Shown: positions 1,240 to 55,947 of the stretch, one piece after another
How positions within the stretch are numbered: position 1 is the stretch's first letter
Layout: every line of letters starts with the position of its first letter
Source of the DNA: Escherichia phage BP32
Sequence record: OR906198.1
Strand: one strand, 5' to 3'
Length of the DNA: 64,000 nt
Notes under the pieces: generated by a model
Databases searched by the model: none
Seen by the model: only the letters and a program-made list of their open reading frames with translations
What the model was told of the DNA's origin: nothing
Translations under genes and position numbers: made by a program

Positions 1240-1785
1240 ATGAGAAAAGCACTACTCGCTGGTCTATTGGCCATTTCTATGATGGCACATAGCTCCGAGC
1301 ATACTTTCAGTAATGTCCAACTCGATAACATGCGTTACGCGTATCAATTCGGGGAACAATTTTCTAAGGATGGAAAATATAAAACACACAAAAATATCCA
1401 CAAGAGCGGATTGGGTCATATAATGGCTGCTATTTTATGGCAAGAAAGCTCTGCCGGAGTTAATTTAAAATCTAAACCAAAGCATCATGCCTATGGAATG
1501 TTCCAAAATTATTTGCCTACTATGCGAGCAAGAGTTAAGGAACTTGGTTATAATATGACCGATGCTGAAATAAAAAGAATGTTGAATAAACGGTCCAATT
1601 CAGCTTCCTGGGCGTACATTGAACTTTCTTATTGGTTAAATATACATAAGGGCGATATAAGAAAGGCGATATCCTCTTATAATTCGGGATGGAATGTTAA
1701 AGCAGGTTCTAAATATGCTTCTGAAGTCCTAGAAAAGGCTAATTACCTTAAAAATAATAAACTTTTGGAAATAGTAAATGACTAA
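1240..1785 (+). CDS. secreted lytic-transglycosylase-like protein (SLT/lysozyme-like fold), vs.1 position
   Basis: N-terminal signal peptide; WQESSAG motif resembling the catalytic E-S motif of soluble lytic transglycosylases. Confidence 0.6.
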   Translation: MRKALLAGLLAISMMAHSSEHTFSNVQLDNMRYAYQFGEQFSKDGKYKTHKNIHKSGLGHIMAAILWQESSAGVNLKSKPKHHAYGMFQNYLPTMRARVKELGYNMTDAEIKRMLNKRSNSASWAYIELSYWLNIHKGDIRKAISSYNSGWNVKAGSKYASEVLEKANYLKNNKLLEIVND

Positions 1786-2119
1786 AATTTTGGTTTTATG
1801 TATAGGATTAATTTCATTTTCTGCGTTAGCAAATACATCATACACTGAAATTAGAGAGTATGTAAACCGTACTGCCGCGGATTATTGTGGGAAAAATAAA
1901 GCATGTCAAGCCGAATTTGCGCAGAAATTAATATATGCATATAAAGATGGAGAAAGAGATAAATCAAGTAGATACAAAAATGATACATTGTTAAAACGAT
2001 ATGCTAAAAAGTGGAATACCTTAGAATGTTCAGTTGCGGAGGAGAAAGATAAAGCCGCCTGTCATTCAATGGTTGACCGTTTGGTAGATTCTTATAATCG
2101 AGGATTGAGTACTAGATGA
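1778..2119 (+). CDS. hypothetical secreted protein (vs position)
   Basis: 113 aa ORF with N-terminal hydrophobic signal-like segment; ATG overlaps upstream stop. Confidence 0.5.
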   Translation: MTKILVLCIGLISFSALANTSYTEIREYVNRTAADYCGKNKACQAEFAQKLIYAYKDGERDKSSRYKNDTLLKRYAKKWNTLECSVAEEKDKAACHSMVDRLVDSYNRGLSTR

Positions 2120-3937: not shown

Positions 3938-3945
3938 TATAAATA
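3938..3945 (+). promoter_or_regulatory. T4 late-promoter consensus TATAAATA
   Basis: exact TATAAATA about 25 nt upstream of ATG 3971. Confidence 0.4.
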
Positions 3946-17554: not shown

Positions 17555-19368
17555 CAATTGAAAAAGAAATTGAAGGATTAATTCATAAAACTAATAAAGA
17601 CCTTTTGAACGAGAATGCTAATAAAGATTCTCGTGTTTTTCCAACTCAACGGGACCTTATGGCTGGTATTGTGTCTAAACACATTGCCAAAAATATGGTC
17701 CCGTCTTTTATTATGAAAGCGCATGAAAGCGGAATTATTCATTTCCATGATATTGATTATTCCCCTGCTCTTCCATTTACTAATTGCTGTTTAGTAGATT
17801 TAAAAGGAATGCTTGAGAACGGATTTAAGCTCGGTAATGCACAGATTGAAACTCCTAAATCAATCGGCGTTGCTACTGCAATTATGGCGCAAATTACTGC
17901 ACAGGTTGCTTCCCATCAATATGGTGGAACGACTTTTGCGAATGTAGACAAAGTACTTTCTCCTTATGTTAAACGCACCTATGCAAAACATATTGAAGAT
18001 GCAGAAAAATGGCAAATCGCTGATGCGCTGAATTACGCCCAGTCTAAAACAGAAAAAGACGTATACGATGCATTCCAAGCTTATGAATATGAAGTAAATA
18101 CTCTCTTTAGTTCAAACGGACAAACGCCCTTTGTAACAATTACATTTGGCACGGGAACTGACTGGACTGAACGAATGATTCAGAAAGCAATTCTGAAAAA
18201 TCGTATCAAAGGTCTTGGTCGTGATGGGATAACTCCTATTTTCCCTAAGCTTGTTATGTTCGTTGAAGAGGGTGTTAATCTTTATAAAGACGATCCGAAC
18301 TATGATATTAAGCAGCTTGCTCTAGAGTGTGCAAGTAAAAGAATGTATCCTGACATCATTTCGGCTAAGAACAATAAAGCTATCACAGGTTCATCTATTC
18401 CTGTTTCTCCAATGGGTTGCCGCAGTTTCTTAAGTGTATGGAAAGATTCGACTGGTAATGAAATTCTTGATGGACGTAATAATCTTGGCGTTGTAACACT
18501 GAATCTTCCTCGTATTGCGTTAGATTCTTATATTGGAACACAGTTCAATGAACAGAAATTTGCCGAATTGTTCAATGAACGAATGGATTTATGTTTTGAA
18601 GCTTTGATGTGTAGAATCAGTTCCTTAAAAGGAGTTAAAGCTACTGTTGCTCCTATTCTTTACCAAGAAGGTGCATTCGGGGTTCGTCTTAAACCTGATG
18701 ACGATATAATTGAGTTATTTAAAAACGGTAGAAGTTCAGTGTCCCTAGGATACATTGGTATTCACGAATTGAATATTCTTGTCGGTCGTGATATTGGACA
18801 AGAAATTTTAACTAAAATGAATACTCATCTTAAACAATGGACTGAAAGAACCGGATTTGCTTTTAGTTTATATTCTACTCCTGCTGAAAACCTGTGCTAT
18901 CGCTTCTGTAAACTTGATACCGAAAAATATGGAAGTGTAAAAGATGTTACCGATAAAGGCTGGTACACTAACAGTTTCCACGTTTCAGTAGAAGAAAATA
19001 TTACTCCGTTTGAAAAGATTTCTCGCGAAGCACCGTATCATTTCATTGCGACAGGTGGTCACATTTCTTATGTTGAACTTCCTGATATGAAAAATAACCT
19101 AAAAGGTCTTGAGGCTGTATGGGATTATGCTGCACAACATTTAGATTATTTTGGTGTTAATATGCCAGTAGATAAATGTTTTACATGCGGAAGTACCCAT
19201 GAAATGACTCCTACTGAAAACGGATTTGTTTGTTCTATTTGTGGAGAAACTGATCCTAAAAAGATGAACACAATAAGAAGAACATGTGGCTATTTGGGAA
19301 ATCCGAATGAACGCGGATTTAATCTTGGCAAAAATAAAGAAATCATGCATAGGGTTAAACACCAATGA
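17551..19368 (+). CDS. nrdD: anaerobic ribonucleoside-triphosphate reductase
   Basis: 605 aa contiguous ORF; C-terminal Cys cluster and glycyl-radical-type tail RTCGYLGN. Confidence 0.97.
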   Translation: MTIEKEIEGLIHKTNKDLLNENANKDSRVFPTQRDLMAGIVSKHIAKNMVPSFIMKAHESGIIHFHDIDYSPALPFTNCCLVDLKGMLENGFKLGNAQIETPKSIGVATAIMAQITAQVASHQYGGTTFANVDKVLSPYVKRTYAKHIEDAEKWQIADALNYAQSKTEKDVYDAFQAYEYEVNTLFSSNGQTPFVTITFGTGTDWTERMIQKAILKNRIKGLGRDGITPIFPKLVMFVEEGVNLYKDDPNYDIKQLALECASKRMYPDIISAKNNKAITGSSIPVSPMGCRSFLSVWKDSTGNEILDGRNNLGVVTLNLPRIALDSYIGTQFNEQKFAELFNERMDLCFEALMCRISSLKGVKATVAPILYQEGAFGVRLKPDDDIIELFKNGRSSVSLGYIGIHELNILVGRDIGQEILTKMNTHLKQWTERTGFAFSLYSTPAENLCYRFCKLDTEKYGSVKDVTDKGWYTNSFHVSVEENITPFEKISREAPYHFIATGGHISYVELPDMKNNLKGLEAVWDYAAQHLDYFGVNMPVDKCFTCGSTHEMTPTENGFVCSICGETDPKKMNTIRRTCGYLGNPNERGFNLGKNKEIMHRVKHQ

Positions 19369-32410: not shown

Positions 32411-35107
32411 ATGAAAGAATTTTATATCTCTATTGAAACAGTCGGAAATAGCATTGTTGAACGTTATATTGATGAAAATGGAAAGGAACGTACTCGTGAA
32501 GTAGAATATCTTCCGACTATGTTTAGGCATTGTAAGGAAGAGTCAAAATACAAAGACATTTATGGTAAAAATTGCGCTCCTCAAAAATTTCCATCAATGA
32601 AAGATGCCCGAGATTGGATGAAACGAATGGAAGACATCGGTCTCGAAGCTCTTGGTATGAACGATTTTAAACTCGCTTATATCAGTGATACATATGGTTC
32701 AGAAATTGTTTATGACCGAAAATTTGTTCGTGTAGCTAACTGTGACATTGAGGTTACTGGTGATAAATTTCCTGACCCAATGAAAGCAGAATATGAAATT
32801 GATGCTATCACACATTATGATTCAATTGACGACCGTTTTTACGTCTTTGATTTGTTGAATTCAATGTACGGTTCAGTATCAAAATGGGATGCAAAGTTAG
32901 CTGCTAAGCTTGACTGTGAAGGTGGTGATGAAGTTCCTCAAGAAATTCTTGACCGAGTAATTTATATGCCATTTGATAATGAGCGTGATATGCTCATGGA
33001 ATATATTAATCTCTGGGAACAGAAACGACCTGCTATTTTTACCGGTTGGAATATTGAGGGATTTGACGTTCCGTATATCATGAATCGTGTTAAAATGGTT
33101 CTCGGTGAACGTAGTATGAAACGCTTCTCTCCAATCGGTCGAGTAAAATCTAAACTAATTCAAAATATGTACGGTAGCAAAGAAATTTATTCTATTGATG
33201 GCGTATCTATTCTTGATTATTTAGATTTGTACAAGAAATTCGCATTTACTAATTTGCCATCGTTCTCTTTGGAATCAGTTGCTCAGCATGAAACCAAAAA
33301 AGGTAAATTACCGTACGATGGTCCTATTAATAAACTTCGTGAGACTAATCATCAACGATACATTAGTTATAACATCATTGACGTAGAATCAGTTCAAGCA
33401 ATTGATAAAATTCGTGGGTTTATCGATCTAGTTTTAAGTATGTCTTATTATGCTAAAATGCCTTTTTCTGGTGTAATGAGTCCTATTAAAACTTGGGATG
33501 CTATTATTTTTAACTCACTGAAAGGTGAACATAAGGTTATTCCTCAACAAGGTTCGCACGTTAAACAAAGTTTTCCAGGTGCATTTGTGTTTGAACCTAA
33601 ACCGATTGCTCGTCGATACATTATGAGTTTTGACTTGACGTCTCTGTATCCTAGCATTATTCGTCAGGTTAACATTAGTCCTGAGACTATTCGTGGACAG
33701 TTTAAAGTTCATCCAATTCATGAATATATCGCAGGAACAGCTCCTAAGCCAAGTGATGAATATTCTTGTTCTCCGAATGGATGGATGTATGATAAGCATC
33801 AAGAAGGTATCATTCCAAAGGAAATCGCTAAAGTATTTTTCCAGCGTAAAGATTGGAAAAAGAAAATGTTCGCTGAAGAAATGAATGCCGAAGCTATTAA
33901 AAAGATTATTATGAAAGGTGCAGGGTCTTGTTCAACTAAACCAGAAGTTGAACGATATGTTAAGTTCAATGATGATTTCTTAAACGAATTATCGAATTAC
34001 ACTGAATCTGTTCTTAATAGTCTGATCGAAGAATGTGAAAAAGCAGCTACACTTGCTAACACAAATCAGCTGAACCGTAAAATTCTTATTAACAGTCTTT
34101 ATGGTGCTCTTGGTAACATTCATTTCCGCTATTATGATTTGCGAAATGCTACTGCTATCACAATTTTTGGTCAAGTTGGTATTCAGTGGATTGCTCGTAA
34201 AATTAATGAATATCTGAATAAAGTATGTGGAACTGATGGTGAAGATTTCATCGCAGCAGGTGATACTGATTCGGTATATGTTTGTGTAGATAAAGTAATT
34301 GAAAAAGTAGGTCTTGACCGCTTTAAAGAACAAAATGATTTAGTTGAATTCATGAATCAGTTCGGTAAGAAAAAGATGGAACCTATGATTGATGTTGCAT
34401 ATCGTGAGTTATGTGATTATATGAATAACCGCGAGCATCTGATGCATATGGACCGTGAAGCTATTTCTTGTCCTCCGCTTGGTTCAAAGGGTGTTGGTGG
34501 ATTTTGGAAAGCGAAAAAGCGTTATGCTCTGAACGTTTATGATATGGAAGATAAGCGATTTGCTGAACCGCATCTAAAAATCATGGGTATGGAAACTCAA
34601 CAGAGCTCAACACCAAAAGCAGTACAAGAAGCTCTCGAAGAAAGTATTCGTCGTATTCTTCAGGAAGGTGAAGAGTCTGTCCAAGAATACTACAAGAACT
34701 TTGAGAAAGAATATCGTCAACTTGACTATAAAGTTATTGCTGAAGTAAAAACTGCGAACGATATAGCGAAATATGATGATAAAGGTTGGCCAGGATTTAA
34801 ATGCCCGTTCCACATTCGTGGGGTGCTAACTTATCGTCGAGCTGTTAATGGTTTAGGTGTAGCTCCAATTTTGGATGGAAATAAGGTAATGGTTCTTCCA
34901 TTACGTGAAGGAAATCCATTTGGTGATAAGTGCATTGCTTGGCCGTCGGGTACGGAACTTCCAAAAGAAATTCGTTCTGATGTACTGTCTTGGATTGACT
35001 ACTCAACTTTGTTCCAAAAATCGTTTGTTAAACCGCTTGCGGGCATGTGTGAATCGGCAGGTATGGACTATGAGGAAAAAGCTTCGTTAGACTTCCTGTT
35101 TGGCTGA
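32411..35107 (+). CDS. 43: DNA polymerase (family B)
   Basis: 898 aa; exonuclease and polymerase motifs (DTDS); sequence recognised. Confidence 0.98.
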   Translation: MKEFYISIETVGNSIVERYIDENGKERTREVEYLPTMFRHCKEESKYKDIYGKNCAPQKFPSMKDARDWMKRMEDIGLEALGMNDFKLAYISDTYGSEIVYDRKFVRVANCDIEVTGDKFPDPMKAEYEIDAITHYDSIDDRFYVFDLLNSMYGSVSKWDAKLAAKLDCEGGDEVPQEILDRVIYMPFDNERDMLMEYINLWEQKRPAIFTGWNIEGFDVPYIMNRVKMVLGERSMKRFSPIGRVKSKLIQNMYGSKEIYSIDGVSILDYLDLYKKFAFTNLPSFSLESVAQHETKKGKLPYDGPINKLRETNHQRYISYNIIDVESVQAIDKIRGFIDLVLSMSYYAKMPFSGVMSPIKTWDAIIFNSLKGEHKVIPQQGSHVKQSFPGAFVFEPKPIARRYIMSFDLTSLYPSIIRQVNISPETIRGQFKVHPIHEYIAGTAPKPSDEYSCSPNGWMYDKHQEGIIPKEIAKVFFQRKDWKKKMFAEEMNAEAIKKIIMKGAGSCSTKPEVERYVKFNDDFLNELSNYTESVLNSLIEECEKAATLANTNQLNRKILINSLYGALGNIHFRYYDLRNATAITIFGQVGIQWIARKINEYLNKVCGTDGEDFIAAGDTDSVYVCVDKVIEKVGLDRFKEQNDLVEFMNQFGKKKMEPMIDVAYRELCDYMNNREHLMHMDREAISCPPLGSKGVGGFWKAKKRYALNVYDMEDKRFAEPHLKIMGMETQQSSTPKAVQEALEESIRRILQEGEESVQEYYKNFEKEYRQLDYKVIAEVKTANDIAKYDDKGWPGFKCPFHIRGVLTYRRAVNGLGVAPILDGNKVMVLPLREGNPFGDKCIAWPSGTELPKEIRSDVLSWIDYSTLFQKSFVKPLAGMCESAGMDYEEKASLDFLFG

Positions 35108-41246: not shown

Positions 41247-41501
41247 ATGATGCTAGTTAATAGAGAATATCAGTTTAAATCAGAAGAAGATTTGGAAAAA
41301 TTCGCAAGTGGTTGTGAACTGAATAGACGCACAGCTAAAGTCATAGGATTAAAACCCTTTACAGTTCTAGATTGTGAAGTTTCTAAATTCCGCAGAGGGT
41401 GTTCTATTAGCGGTCATGCTCTGGTTGATGGGAACACATTTTTCTTTGTTTTTAGCGTCAGAGAACTTTTATTGATTAACGAACTTGAGGAAATAAAATA
41501 G
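41247..41501 (+). CDS. hypothetical protein (84 aa)
   Basis: GGAGAAAA RBS. Confidence 0.55.
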   Translation: MMLVNREYQFKSEEDLEKFASGCELNRRTAKVIGLKPFTVLDCEVSKFRRGCSISGHALVDGNTFFFVFSVRELLLINELEEIK

Positions 41502-41558
41502 TTTACTTTTGTTGGAAATTGAGATACTATATAAACATAAACTACTGAGGAGATTATC

Positions 41559-41852
41559 ATGAAAAAATTTGTTTTTGCTGCAATTTTTGCTTTGGCTTCT
41601 TGTACTGCTCAGCCTGCTATGGCGGGTTATGATAAAGATTTGTGCGAATGGTCTATGACTGCAGATCAGACTGAGGTTGAAACTCAGATTGAAGCAGATA
41701 TTATGAATATCGTTGAGCGTGATCGCCCTGAAATGAAAGCTGAAGTACAAAAACAGCTTAAGTCTGGTGGTGTAATGCAGTATAATTACGTTTTGTATTG
41801 CGATAAAAACTTCAATAATAAAAATATCATCGCTGAAGTGGTAGGTGAATAA
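41559..41852 (+). CDS. sp: periplasmic protein Spackle (inhibits tail lysozyme; superinfection exclusion)
   Basis: 97 aa with signal peptide; sequence and size match my recollection of T4 Sp. Confidence 0.75.
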   Translation: MKKFVFAAIFALASCTAQPAMAGYDKDLCEWSMTADQTEVETQIEADIMNIVERDRPEMKAEVQKQLKSGGVMQYNYVLYCDKNFNNKNIIAEVVGE

Positions 41853-41864
41853 TTAGAGGTTAAT

Positions 41865-42029
41865 ATGAAAACATATAAAGAATTTATCAAAGAAGATATG
41901 GTCGCTGGAGATTCAGGTGGTAATCCTGAAAATATCTCTACTGGAACAACATCAGGTGCTGTAGTAAATAAAGGCCCTGAACAGATTCCTAAAAAGAAAA
42001 AAGAGGAATCTAAAGAAAAAGAAGAGTAA
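41865..42029 (+). CDS. hypothetical small protein (54 aa)
   Basis: AGAGG RBS; Lys/Glu-rich tail. Confidence 0.4.
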   Translation: MKTYKEFIKEDMVAGDSGGNPENISTGTTSGAVVNKGPEQIPKKKKEESKEKEE

Positions 42030-42031
42030 AA

Positions 42032-43060
42032 ATGTCATCAATACCTTGGATTGATAATGAGTTTGCATATCGTGCATTAGCTCATTTACCTAAATTCACA
42101 CAAGTAAATAATAGTTCAACTTTTAAATTACGGTTTAGATGCCCTGTTTGTGGAGATTCAAAAACCGACCAAAATAAAGCCCGTGGATGGTATTACGGTG
42201 ATAATAATGAAGGAAATATTCATTGTTATAACTGCAACTATCATGCACCAATCGGAATATATTTAAAGGAGTTTGAACCCGATTTATATCGTGAGTATAT
42301 CTTTGAAATAAGAAAAGAAAAAGGTAAAAGTCGTCCAGTAGAAAAACCTAAAGAACTTCCTAAACAACCTGAGAAGAAAATAATTAAATCTCTTCCGTCA
42401 TGCATTAGATTAGATAAACTGGCGGAAGACCATCCAATTATAAAATACGTAAAAGCTCGCTGTATTCCAAAGGATAAATGGAAATATCTTTGGTTTACAA
42501 CCGAATGGCCTAAATTAGTTAATAGCATAGCACCAGGAACATACAAAAAGGAAATACCTGAGTCTCGTCTTGTTATTCCAATTTATAATGCTAATGGAAA
42601 AGCCGAGTCTTTTCAAGGACGTGCATTAAAGAAAGATGCTCCTCAAAAATATATCACCATCAAAGCTTATCCTGAGGCAACAAAAATCTATGGAGTTGAA
42701 CGAGTTAAAGATGGTGATGTATATGTTCTAGAAGGACCTATAGATTCACTTTTTATTGAAAATGGTATAGCTATTACAGGTGGTCAATTAGACCTAGAAA
42801 TTGTTCCATTTAAAGATAGACGTGTATGGGTTTTAGATAATGAACCTCGTCACCCTGATACTATTAAACGAATGACTAAATTAGTTGATGCAGGAGAAAG
42901 GGTTATGTTTTGGGATAAATCTCCCTGGAAATCAAAAGATGTTAATGATATGATTAGAAAGGAAGGTGCAACCCCTGAACAAATTATGGAATATATGAAA
43001 AATAATATTGCCCAAGGGTTGATGGCTAAAATGCGGCTATCTAAATATGCTAAGATTTAA
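42032..43060 (+). CDS. 61: DNA primase
   Basis: 342 aa; zinc-binding motif CPVCGDSK; Toprim-like region. Confidence 0.93.
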   Translation: MSSIPWIDNEFAYRALAHLPKFTQVNNSSTFKLRFRCPVCGDSKTDQNKARGWYYGDNNEGNIHCYNCNYHAPIGIYLKEFEPDLYREYIFEIRKEKGKSRPVEKPKELPKQPEKKIIKSLPSCIRLDKLAEDHPIIKYVKARCIPKDKWKYLWFTTEWPKLVNSIAPGTYKKEIPESRLVIPIYNANGKAESFQGRALKKDAPQKYITIKAYPEATKIYGVERVKDGDVYVLEGPIDSLFIENGIAITGGQLDLEIVPFKDRRVWVLDNEPRHPDTIKRMTKLVDAGERVMFWDKSPWKSKDVNDMIRKEGATPEQIMEYMKNNIAQGLMAKMRLSKYAKI

Positions 43061-43257
43061 ATTAACCCAACTAAAGCAAATGCTAAATCTACGAATGTAT
43101 CAAGAGTAATTACTGGAATACTAACGCCATGAGCAATAGCAACTGGCGATAAAACAAAATTCCAAAGTAAAATTCCTATCATAGCAGAAATAGTAAAAGC
43201 TATACGTTTTTTATTACCTTTGATGGCATTAACAAGTGCCATTAATTTTTGTACCAT
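43057..43257 (-). CDS. small membrane protein on the opposite strand (66 aa, 2 TM)
   Basis: only minus-strand ORF lying in an intergenic gap; AAGGAGG RBS 8 nt upstream; ATAAATA late-promoter-like element upstream. Confidence 0.5.
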   Translation of the reverse strand: MVQKLMALVNAIKGNKKRIAFTISAMIGILLWNFVLSPVAIAHGVSIPVITLDTFVDLAFALVGLI

Positions 43258-43306
43258 GCGTCGTCCTCCTTTAAATTAAATATTTATCGCAAATTTTACA
43301 AAATTT

Positions 43307-43336
43307 GTTTACTTTCTCAGCTTGTTGTGGTATTAT
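43307..43336 (+). promoter_or_regulatory. T4-type early promoter
   Basis: gtttactttctcagcttgttgtggtattat. Confidence 0.65.
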
Positions 43337-43361
43337 AAAATAAACTGCTGAGGATAATATA

Positions 43362-44701
<1,340 letters not shown>

Positions 44702-45322: not shown

Positions 45323-45330
45323 TATAAATA
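45323..45330 (+). promoter_or_regulatory. late promoter TATAAATA
   Basis: exact consensus about 30 nt upstream of soc. Confidence 0.6.
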
Positions 45331-55575: not shown

Positions 55576-55947
55576 ATGTTTAAAATCGGTAAGAAATATC
55601 GTGTTCGCGAAGGTGAAGAAAAGAAATATCTACTTTCTTCTATTTATAGGAATAGTTCTATTAATACTGTAATATCTACAAGCGAATTTATCGTTGAAGA
55701 TATGAAAGGTCATAATGTTACAATGATTAGTACAGCATCTGGAAATGATGGAAAAATTCTTCACAGCTTTCAGAGTAATGTTCTAATTTATGATGAAGAA
55801 TTTGACTTCTTCGAAGAAGTTACAGAAGATTTTGATTTTGGATGCACCATCACTATGAAATCTGGTGACCCTCTTTCATTTACGGTTAAAGATGAAAGAA
55901 GTCGCTTGAGAATTATTAGTCTTCTTCAAGCCATTAAATTTGAGTGA
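55576..55947 (+). CDS. hypothetical protein (123 aa)
   Basis: ORF track. Confidence 0.55.
   Translation: MFKIGKKYRVREGEEKKYLLSSIYRNSSINTVISTSEFIVEDMKGHNVTMISTASGNDGKILHSFQSNVLIYDEEFDFFEEVTEDFDFGCTITMKSGDPLSFTVKDERSRLRIISLLQAIKFE

Follow-up and report, generated by a model that had tools for sequence, protein, structure and literature searches.

The 64,000-nucleotide stretch of Escherichia phage BP32 analysed here (sequence record OR906198.1, hereafter the window) carries on its minus strand a small open reading frame (ORF) of 66 amino acids (aa), which lies among the early genes of this T4-like phage (a Tequatrovirus) and faces the 3' end of gene 61, the DNA primase gene. This small ORF is almost certainly a real translated gene, its product is very probably an inner-membrane protein with the N-terminus on the inner side, and its transcription is likely to be late only, a view that draws on the depletion of a motif across the window, the conservation of a box upstream of the gene, the tolerance of that box for change at position -13, and the polarity of the gene. 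As a sequence feature the gene is already known, in that it belongs to a catalogued, uncharacterised family and stands as a hypothetical protein in hundreds of genomes; the late-promoter reading is plausible and was partly anticipated by one GenBank annotation. The elements on which the argument turns are the following.

43057..43257, minus strand: small membrane-protein gene, 66 aa, ATG start (MVQKLMALVNAIKGNKKR-IAFTISAMIGILLWNFVLSPVAIA-HGVSIPVITLDTFVDLAFALVGLI), drawn from the ORF list, the phrog_2024 match, tblastn and the ratio of nonsynonymous to synonymous substitution rates (dN/dS)
43265-43271, minus strand: Shine-Dalgarno (SD) sequence AAGGAGG, 7 nt before the ATG, read from the sequence
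43272..43280, minus strand: A/T-only stretch TTTAATTTA between box and SD, followed by the two A residues of the SD
43281-43288, minus strand: GATAAATA, candidate gp55-dependent late promoter box (-13 to -6), ending 23 nt before the ATG

The length of the ORF is in itself weak evidence for a gene, because the window holds 66 minus-strand ORFs of at least 60 aa; among these, only the small ORF has an SD core before its first start codon. The heptamer AAGGAGG is absent from the plus strand of the 64 kb and present twice on the minus strand, and no ORF stands behind the second minus-strand copy (25309). AGGAGG or AAGGAG is kept before the start codon in all lineages examined. An earlier note on this DNA, made from the sequence alone, had described a 66-aa minus-strand ORF that converges on gene 61, possesses a strong AAGGAGG ribosome-binding site (RBS), and is the only opposite-strand gene, and on these points it was borne out. 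The two genes do converge, since the tetranucleotide TTAA at 43057..43060 is a 4-nt overlap of the small-ORF stop codon (43057-43059) with the TAA of gene 61, an arrangement found also in T4, RB69, Bas37, CkP1 and others. In the annotation of the collinear relative PP216085.1, the small ORF is the sole minus-strand coding sequence (CDS) among about 125 across 64 kb, all others lying on the plus strand.

Comparative data carry the case for a genuine gene further. The protein matches phrog_2024, a family of unknown function (E 1.9e-30, residues 2-66 aligned to positions 1-65 of the 65 in the profile), whose members RB69ORF029w, RB32 ORF030w, VR7ORF033w and bas37_0144 are 63-69 aa long, occupy the same locus in the same orientation, and show no substantive difference from the window copy; no member has an assigned function. 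A tblastn search retrieved 692 phage records, 685 of which are covered over at least 80% in one piece, so that the ORF is intact in about 99%, and a divergent family member used as query retrieved 824 records. The earlier note had named absence or disruption of the ORF in relatives as the observation that would count against it; the protein is found at 80% identity or more in about 502 records, as against 503 records matching the local DNA at 90% or more, which favours a gene. The window copy is 92% identical to an unannotated copy in T4 and 100% identical to those of IME339, ZJUN4 and GRNsp7. Genomes inspected comprised Tequatrovirus (T4, T6, Lutter, OE5505, Bas37, Bas38, Bas40, Bas41), Mosigvirus (RB69, mar005P1, F31, PhAPEC2), Gaprivervirus (VR7, P896), Jiaodavirus (Klebsiella phage UTI-K1) and Karamvirus (Citrobacter phage CkP1), and in every one with the gene it lies on the strand opposite to the early genes, convergent on the primase 3' end, between gene 56 (or dam) and gene 61. 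Position and orientation are thus the same in five Tevenvirinae genera, while the adjacent cassette varies (nothing, dam alone, or ORF186 with dam) and the small ORF with its box and SD is unchanged.

The small ORF is under purifying selection. When 16 sequences were aligned by codon, dN/dS came to 0.10-0.27 for comparisons inside a genus and stayed below 0.5 for those between genera, where synonymous sites are saturated and amino-acid identity is nonetheless 28-55%; one relative has a 9-nt deletion that preserves the frame. This constraint belongs to the minus-strand frame, because no plus-strand gene overlaps the ORF beyond the 4-nt stop overlap. Together with the family match, tblastn and hydropathy, these values uphold the earlier note's view of a real gene for a membrane protein. 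As to how widely the family is spread, a word-indexed profile search returned 85 proteins of 41-73 aa, from T4-like phages wherever a source is named, and the named ones are all hypothetical or uncharacterized apart from one automatic 'Holin' label. An exhaustive search of 1.84 billion representative proteins with a profile hidden Markov model (HMM) turned up no more than 6 members or fragments of the family, and a scan of IMG/VR only 5 loci.

Some observations weigh against an intact gene and would suit a decaying or non-functional ORF retained through linkage to the primase 3' end. The T6 RefSeq record (NC_054907; L007 1501-1503) has ATT in place of ATG, with its CDS annotated from an internal Met, and in ECCR664 (L016), a low-quality assembly, a 1-nt deletion in an A-run causes a frameshift that splits the ORF. 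The nearest metagenomic relatives of T6 keep the ATG start, and each of the two lesions reflects either an error of sequencing or, the gene being non-essential, a loss that is tolerated. Decay would also accommodate the absence of the small ORF from the locus in Karamvirus CC31, the non-essentiality of the Bas37 ortholog, and the lack of the gene in the T4 reference annotation. Set against these points are the near-universal integrity of the ORF, its purifying selection, its maintenance in five genera though the flanking DNA turns over, and the lack of an overlapping plus-strand gene that could constrain the region, which together make decay extremely improbable.

The family may also have undergone duplication. 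VR7 (L005, NC_014792) carries at about 1702-1970 (+) an unannotated paralog in tandem, just behind the annotated copy (hhalign: probability 96%, E 2.6e-9) and reading into the primase 3' end in antisense. P896 (L006) carries a truncated version of this paralog at 1693-1804, for which reason the second copy looks like a decaying duplication.

A late gp55-type promoter is the likely best reading of the upstream box. As the earlier note had stated of its ATAAATA element, GATAAATA matches the late consensus TATAAATA at seven of eight positions, the sole deviation being at -13. The heptamer ATAAATA is rare in the window, with five occurrences on the two strands together, whereas dinucleotide content predicts about 40 and a maximal-order Markov model 17.5; it is, at about 8-fold, the most depleted A/T-only heptamer after A7/T7. 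Likewise, TATAAATA is seen three times in the window where 10.8 are expected, and VATAAATA twice where 30 are expected. Such depletion would be expected if stray late promoters are selected against in the early region, and because the motif is so strongly purged, the retained copies are likely to be functional. Further copies lie at 3938 (+), 17043 (+) and 45323 (+). A perfect TATAAATA occurs at 55641-55648 (-), inside the plus-strand gene 55576-55947; neither an SD nor a credible ORF follows it, and in view of the strong purging of the motif it may serve as a late promoter for antisense transcription.

Conservation points in the same direction. In five of the seven lineages examined, ATAAATA is retained 10-23 nt before the ATG within upstream DNA that has otherwise diverged. 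The box reads GATAAATA in the T4 group and in the window, AATAAATA in the T6 group and Mosigvirus, CATAAATA in Gaprivervirus, and both GATAAATA and CATAAATA in Jiaodavirus, so that the -13 base before the heptamer is G or A in Tequatrovirus, A in Mosigvirus, C in Gaprivervirus, and G and C in Jiaodavirus. Such variation has precedent, -13 being the position at which T4 late promoters tolerate most change: 32 of the 50 listed T4 late promoters are perfect and 9 of the 50 have A at -13 (Geiduschek and Kassavetis, PMC2988020), and T at -13 is poorly conserved in T4 relatives (Nolan et al., PMC1524935). The 11 nt following the box are all A or T (TTTAATTTAAA), which fits the A/T-rich melting segment found downstream of late boxes (PMC2988020, PMC1524935); from the -13 to -6 rule and this segment, transcription is predicted to start near 43275 and to give a leader of about 18 nt. 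Finally, T4 early and middle transcripts all have one polarity (counterclockwise) and only late ones run either way (PMC2988020), a rule by which the clockwise polarity of the small ORF is compatible only with late transcription. The homologous 8-bp site is already annotated as a promoter in GenBank MT682714.

Three observations pull the other way. Two of the seven lineages have variants matching at only six or seven of eight positions (CkP1 ATTAAATA; a metagenomic relative TATTAATA), a perfect TATAAATA stands upstream of the small ORF in none of the lineages examined, and the site is missing from the 31 late promoters that an HMM identified in RB69 (Nolan et al. 2006, PMC1524935). The failure of the -13 base ever to be the consensus T could also be taken to favour early or constitutive expression of a real gene from a host sigma-70-type promoter, with an early function such as superinfection exclusion like that of Imm. 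In support of such expression, two weak sigma-70-like matches (9/12) exist on the minus strand, at 43381-43354 and 43320-43293, but they are at chance level: the minus strand has no convincing sigma-70 promoter, with 7 matches against 4.6 +/- 2.4 expected by chance. Moreover, the known T4 early and middle transcripts run opposite to the small ORF (PMC2988020), read-through from gene 61 would yield RNA antisense to it, and ATAAATA is the conserved upstream element across genera, all of which renders early expression improbable.

The late-promoter reading makes a simple prediction: conversion of GATAAATA to GATCCATA would lose the transcript, and conversion to TATAAATA would gain it. A differential RNA sequencing (dRNA-seq) study of T4 has a table of 150 start sites, 22 of them antisense (10.1101/2024.04.04.588121). 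A precedent for a late promoter inside an early block is provided by T4 late genes of the early region such as soc (small outer capsid protein), and in the window itself a TATAAATA box at 45323-45330 precedes the soc-region late genes. Unlike soc, which runs with its early neighbours and encodes a protein for capsid decoration, the small ORF points against them, its box departs from the consensus at -13, and its product is a membrane protein.

The convergent arrangement raises the further possibility that the functional product is a late antisense RNA directed against the 3' end of the gene 61 mRNA, the ORF being incidental. A scan of 41800-43100 detected no terminator on either strand; with the stop codons overlapping and no minus-strand terminator after the ORF, a late small-ORF transcript would run antisense into the 3' part of gene 61. 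Against it, selection acts on the protein, as seen from a dN/dS well under 1 and from a hydrophobic pattern and motifs that survive at 28-50% identity in the face of saturated synonymous sites, and the strong SD is conserved. Nor is the antisense overlap itself conserved, because in Gaprivervirus a gap of 108-206 nt separates the ORF from the primase, and in Jiaodavirus a G+C-rich hairpin intervenes. The latter, AAGGGGCTTTGGCCCCT at 2693-2715 of Klebsiella phage UTI-K1 (L022), occupies the 18 nt that separate the two convergent genes and looks like a bidirectional terminator; Tequatrovirus is without a hairpin of this type because its stop codons overlap. A role as antisense RNA alone is accordingly unlikely, indeed very improbable, and in this window the late extension into the primase gene would be a by-product.

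As to the protein, all five of its K/R residues fall at 4-18, and D53 and D57 are the sole acidic ones. A clear membrane helix runs over residues about 18-42 (Kyte-Doolittle mean 1.8), and by the positive-inside rule the N-terminus is inferred to be in the cytoplasm. The earlier note had called the product a two-helix membrane protein, and it is the first helix that stood up, the second being doubtful. A second hydrophobic stretch does span 44-66 (Kyte-Doolittle 1.6-1.9) but includes D53, D57 and P48; the acidic residues of this C-terminal segment are conserved, as is one of its one or two prolines, and D53 and D57 lie on one helical face. Its summed apparent cost of membrane insertion is 6-9 kcal/mol, versus 2-3 for helix 1. 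AlphaFold2, run with 6 sequences, predicts three helices (2-13, 16-42 and, 12 residues long, 52-63) and a loop over 43-51; its pLDDT of 73, obtained from so few sequences, gives the model moderate confidence only. A single membrane helix at 21-41 is the published prediction for RB69ORF029w. The acidic C-terminal segment, the modelled loop and short helix, and the RB69 prediction together favour, by a modest margin of confidence, a single span over a hairpin, with the C-terminal tail periplasmic or interfacial. Across eight lineages, the residues invariant after M1 are W32, N33, P38, G44 and P48, which sit in the outer half of the helix and just beyond it and define the motif W-N-(F/Y)-x4-P-x5-G-x3-P. 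Such a distribution hints at binding of a particular membrane partner, as opposed to bulk membrane damage.

The topology bears on the earlier note's proposal of a holin-like product, under which a two-helix hairpin (class II holin, pinholin or antiholin) would make membrane holes and set or tune lysis timing. Such a product might be expected from the two hydrophobic stretches, both with Kyte-Doolittle values above 1.6, from expression that is likely late, and from the position of D53 and D57, which could line a pore from one face of the C-terminal helix; one UniRef entry, the OE5505 ortholog, even bears the label 'Holin'. That label apparently comes from an automatic pipeline and has no supporting evidence. 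The 'putative head morphogenesis protein' label given in T6 and BW-1 is likewise unreliable, as the T6 record mislabels other genes, e.g. soc as 'terminase small subunit'. For a hairpin, the acidic residues and prolines of the C-terminal segment would exact the high insertion cost given above, the segment is modelled as a loop and a 12-residue helix, and the RB69 ortholog is predicted to have one membrane helix. The C-terminus, ...FVDLAFALVGLI (protein end ...ALVGLI), has no charged tail. No endolysin or spanin gene is adjacent, the neighbours being primase, dam, dCTPase and soc, and neither Pfam, NCBIfam nor structural comparison links the protein to any holin family. T4 already has holin T, antiholin RI and RIII.

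Genetic data from a relative add to this. In a genome-wide transposon study, bas37_0144 (91945..92145, 201 bp, 4-nt primase overlap) was hit at 20 of 24 TA sites and classed as 'Non-essential', and three of the six conditional HIDEN-SEQ comparisons gave non-significant log2 fold changes (log2FC) of 0.33, 0.20 and -0.28 (q = 1) (10.1101/2025.11.20.689424). The gene is dispensable on laboratory E. coli K-12 and in at least three further test hosts or conditions. Insertion counts in bas37_0144 were near normal, while the endolysin gene e was essential in the T4 library of the same study (10.1101/2025.11.20.689424). With no charged tail, no nearby lysis genes, a doubtful second span and a non-essential ortholog in Bas37, the holin-like assignment is not supported, and a pore-forming hairpin is quite improbable; any role at all in lysis or its timing is unlikely, and to assign the protein to lysis timing or exclusion, as the earlier note did, is pure speculation.

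Searches for homologs of assigned function were consistently negative. No Pfam, NCBIfam or PADLOC match was obtained with the protein and two distant orthologs, a profile search against PDB sequences gave a best E of 0.95, which is noise, and Foldseek found no fold match in the PDB. Against BFVD, Foldseek returned only family members and two 63-aa T4-like phage proteins that are probably members too. The exhaustive profile search of representative proteins revealed no homolog of known function. In the literature, no paper naming ORF029w, ORF030w or ORF033w was found, nor any T4 ribosome-profiling study of small ORFs.

Comparison with better characterized small membrane proteins helps to frame the possibilities. 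With the holins (T4 T, class III; the phage 21 S68 pinholin, class II; lambda S, class I), the product would share the general features of a small, late-expressed phage membrane protein having a helix with polar residues; it differs in its lack of a charged tail and of lysis-gene adjacency, its doubtful second helix, its non-essential ortholog, and the absence of any sequence or fold relation. T4 Imm and Sp, which act in superinfection exclusion, are similarly small, envelope-located accessory proteins of the T-even phages that are non-essential in the laboratory, but both are early, plus-strand genes (the Imm ortholog near 34436-34687; Sp at 41559-41852), and profile searches found no similarity to them. 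A functional analogy only, with no homology, can be drawn with MgrB, AcrZ and MgtS, which have in common with the small-ORF product their size, the single N-in span favoured for it, and polar or proline residues conserved in and after the helix. By this analogy, these features suggest binding to a larger membrane partner.

Taken as a whole, the explanation we favour, somewhat better than even in our estimation, is that the small ORF is a genuine accessory gene of T-even-type phages, encoding a protein of about 65 aa. Transcription by RNA polymerase bearing gp55, the phage sigma factor, together with gp33 and the gp45 clamp, would begin some 6 nt past the non-consensus box GATAAATA, and the resulting short leader would carry the strongest RBS of the window. 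The protein would insert with its N-terminus in the cytoplasm, as the positive-inside rule implies, and leave a C-terminal tail of about 24 residues in the periplasm or at the membrane interface. One may speculate that in the late phase this small protein then binds to or modulates some other membrane protein, which it would contact through W-N-(F/Y)-x4-P-x5-G-x3-P, and that it has no role as a pore or an enzyme. That the product is an unrecognised late-phase membrane regulator common to T-even phages, acting through the W-N...P...G...P motif on a phage or host membrane partner, is unlikely. If it were so, the protein might be an additional holin/antiholin component of lysis inhibition, a late factor for superinfection or for sensing of periplasmic DNA, or a membrane anchor for head assembly, and the pairing of a weak promoter with a very strong RBS would keep a potentially toxic product low and yet reliably made.

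The surroundings of the small ORF are those of an early block, and the neighbouring features are as follows.

41559-41852, plus strand: spackle (Sp), early block
between spackle and gene 61, plus strand: gene 61.1, early block
42032..43060, plus strand: gene 61, DNA primase, 342 aa, early gene (phrog_47 DNA primase, E 7e-106)
43220..43254, plus strand: hairpin (43220-43245) then TTTTT, antisense to small-ORF codons 2-13 (consensus scan, 1 found versus 0.3 expected)
43308..43336, plus strand: early-type promoter TTTACT, 17 nt spacer, TG, TATTAT, serving the next plus-strand gene
43362-43922, plus strand: ORF186, 186 aa, the next plus-strand gene past the small ORF
43922-44701, plus strand: dam, early block
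past dam, plus strand: gene 56, dCTPase, early block

The hairpin at 43220-43254 may be a weak terminator of gene 61 transcripts. This is uncertain because it has only 3 G-C pairs and because inspection by eye disclosed no comparable hairpin and T-run in the orthologous Mosigvirus sequence. If gene 61 transcripts do end there, an early antisense RNA would extend across the whole small ORF. The early-type promoter at 43308..43336 is placed back to back with the late box inside a 104-nt intergenic region, and relatives differ in whether they have the cassette that it serves (ORF186, and dam in some phages). ORF186 itself (phrog_8706) ends in a stop codon that overlaps the start of dam; an early-type promoter of its own precedes it, and it is present in Lutter, OE5505 and ZJUN4 and absent from T4 and T6. 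It weakly matches type II restriction endonucleases (Pfam DpnII, E 0.0022, below cutoff; PADLOC REase_II, E 4.8e-5). GATC is the site both of the enzyme DpnII and of the methylase Dam.

The nearest record is Escherichia phage vB_EcoM_HZ_ZJUN4 (PP216085.1), which is 99.7% identical over a 601-bp query around the ORF (window 42900-43500) and differs slightly from the window in gene content outside the query region. At 41247-42029 the window has no gene 61.2 between spackle and gene 61.1, where T4 and ZJUN4 have one; the window and ZJUN4 are in register at the primase because of about 600 extra bases somewhere upstream.

T4 itself is a case of omission. The gap at 17626-17934 of the T4 RefSeq record NC_000866.4, a 309-bp interval between dam and gene 61, is empty, and the gene is missing also from the T4 record KJ477684.1 and from the T4D annotation of the 2025 genome-wide essentiality screen. 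In T4 coordinates (NC_000866), the ORF lies at 17738..17938 (+) and the box at 17709..17716. Because the T4 annotations leave it out, gene-based omics and knock-down screens in T4 never score this gene. T4 is the reference model of this phage group, and adding the gene would close a small annotation gap. In other respects it is one of many small, laboratory-dispensable T4 proteins of unknown function, and nothing about it would surprise a specialist; what it offers is one more late membrane protein for studies of lysis inhibition, exclusion and envelope biology.

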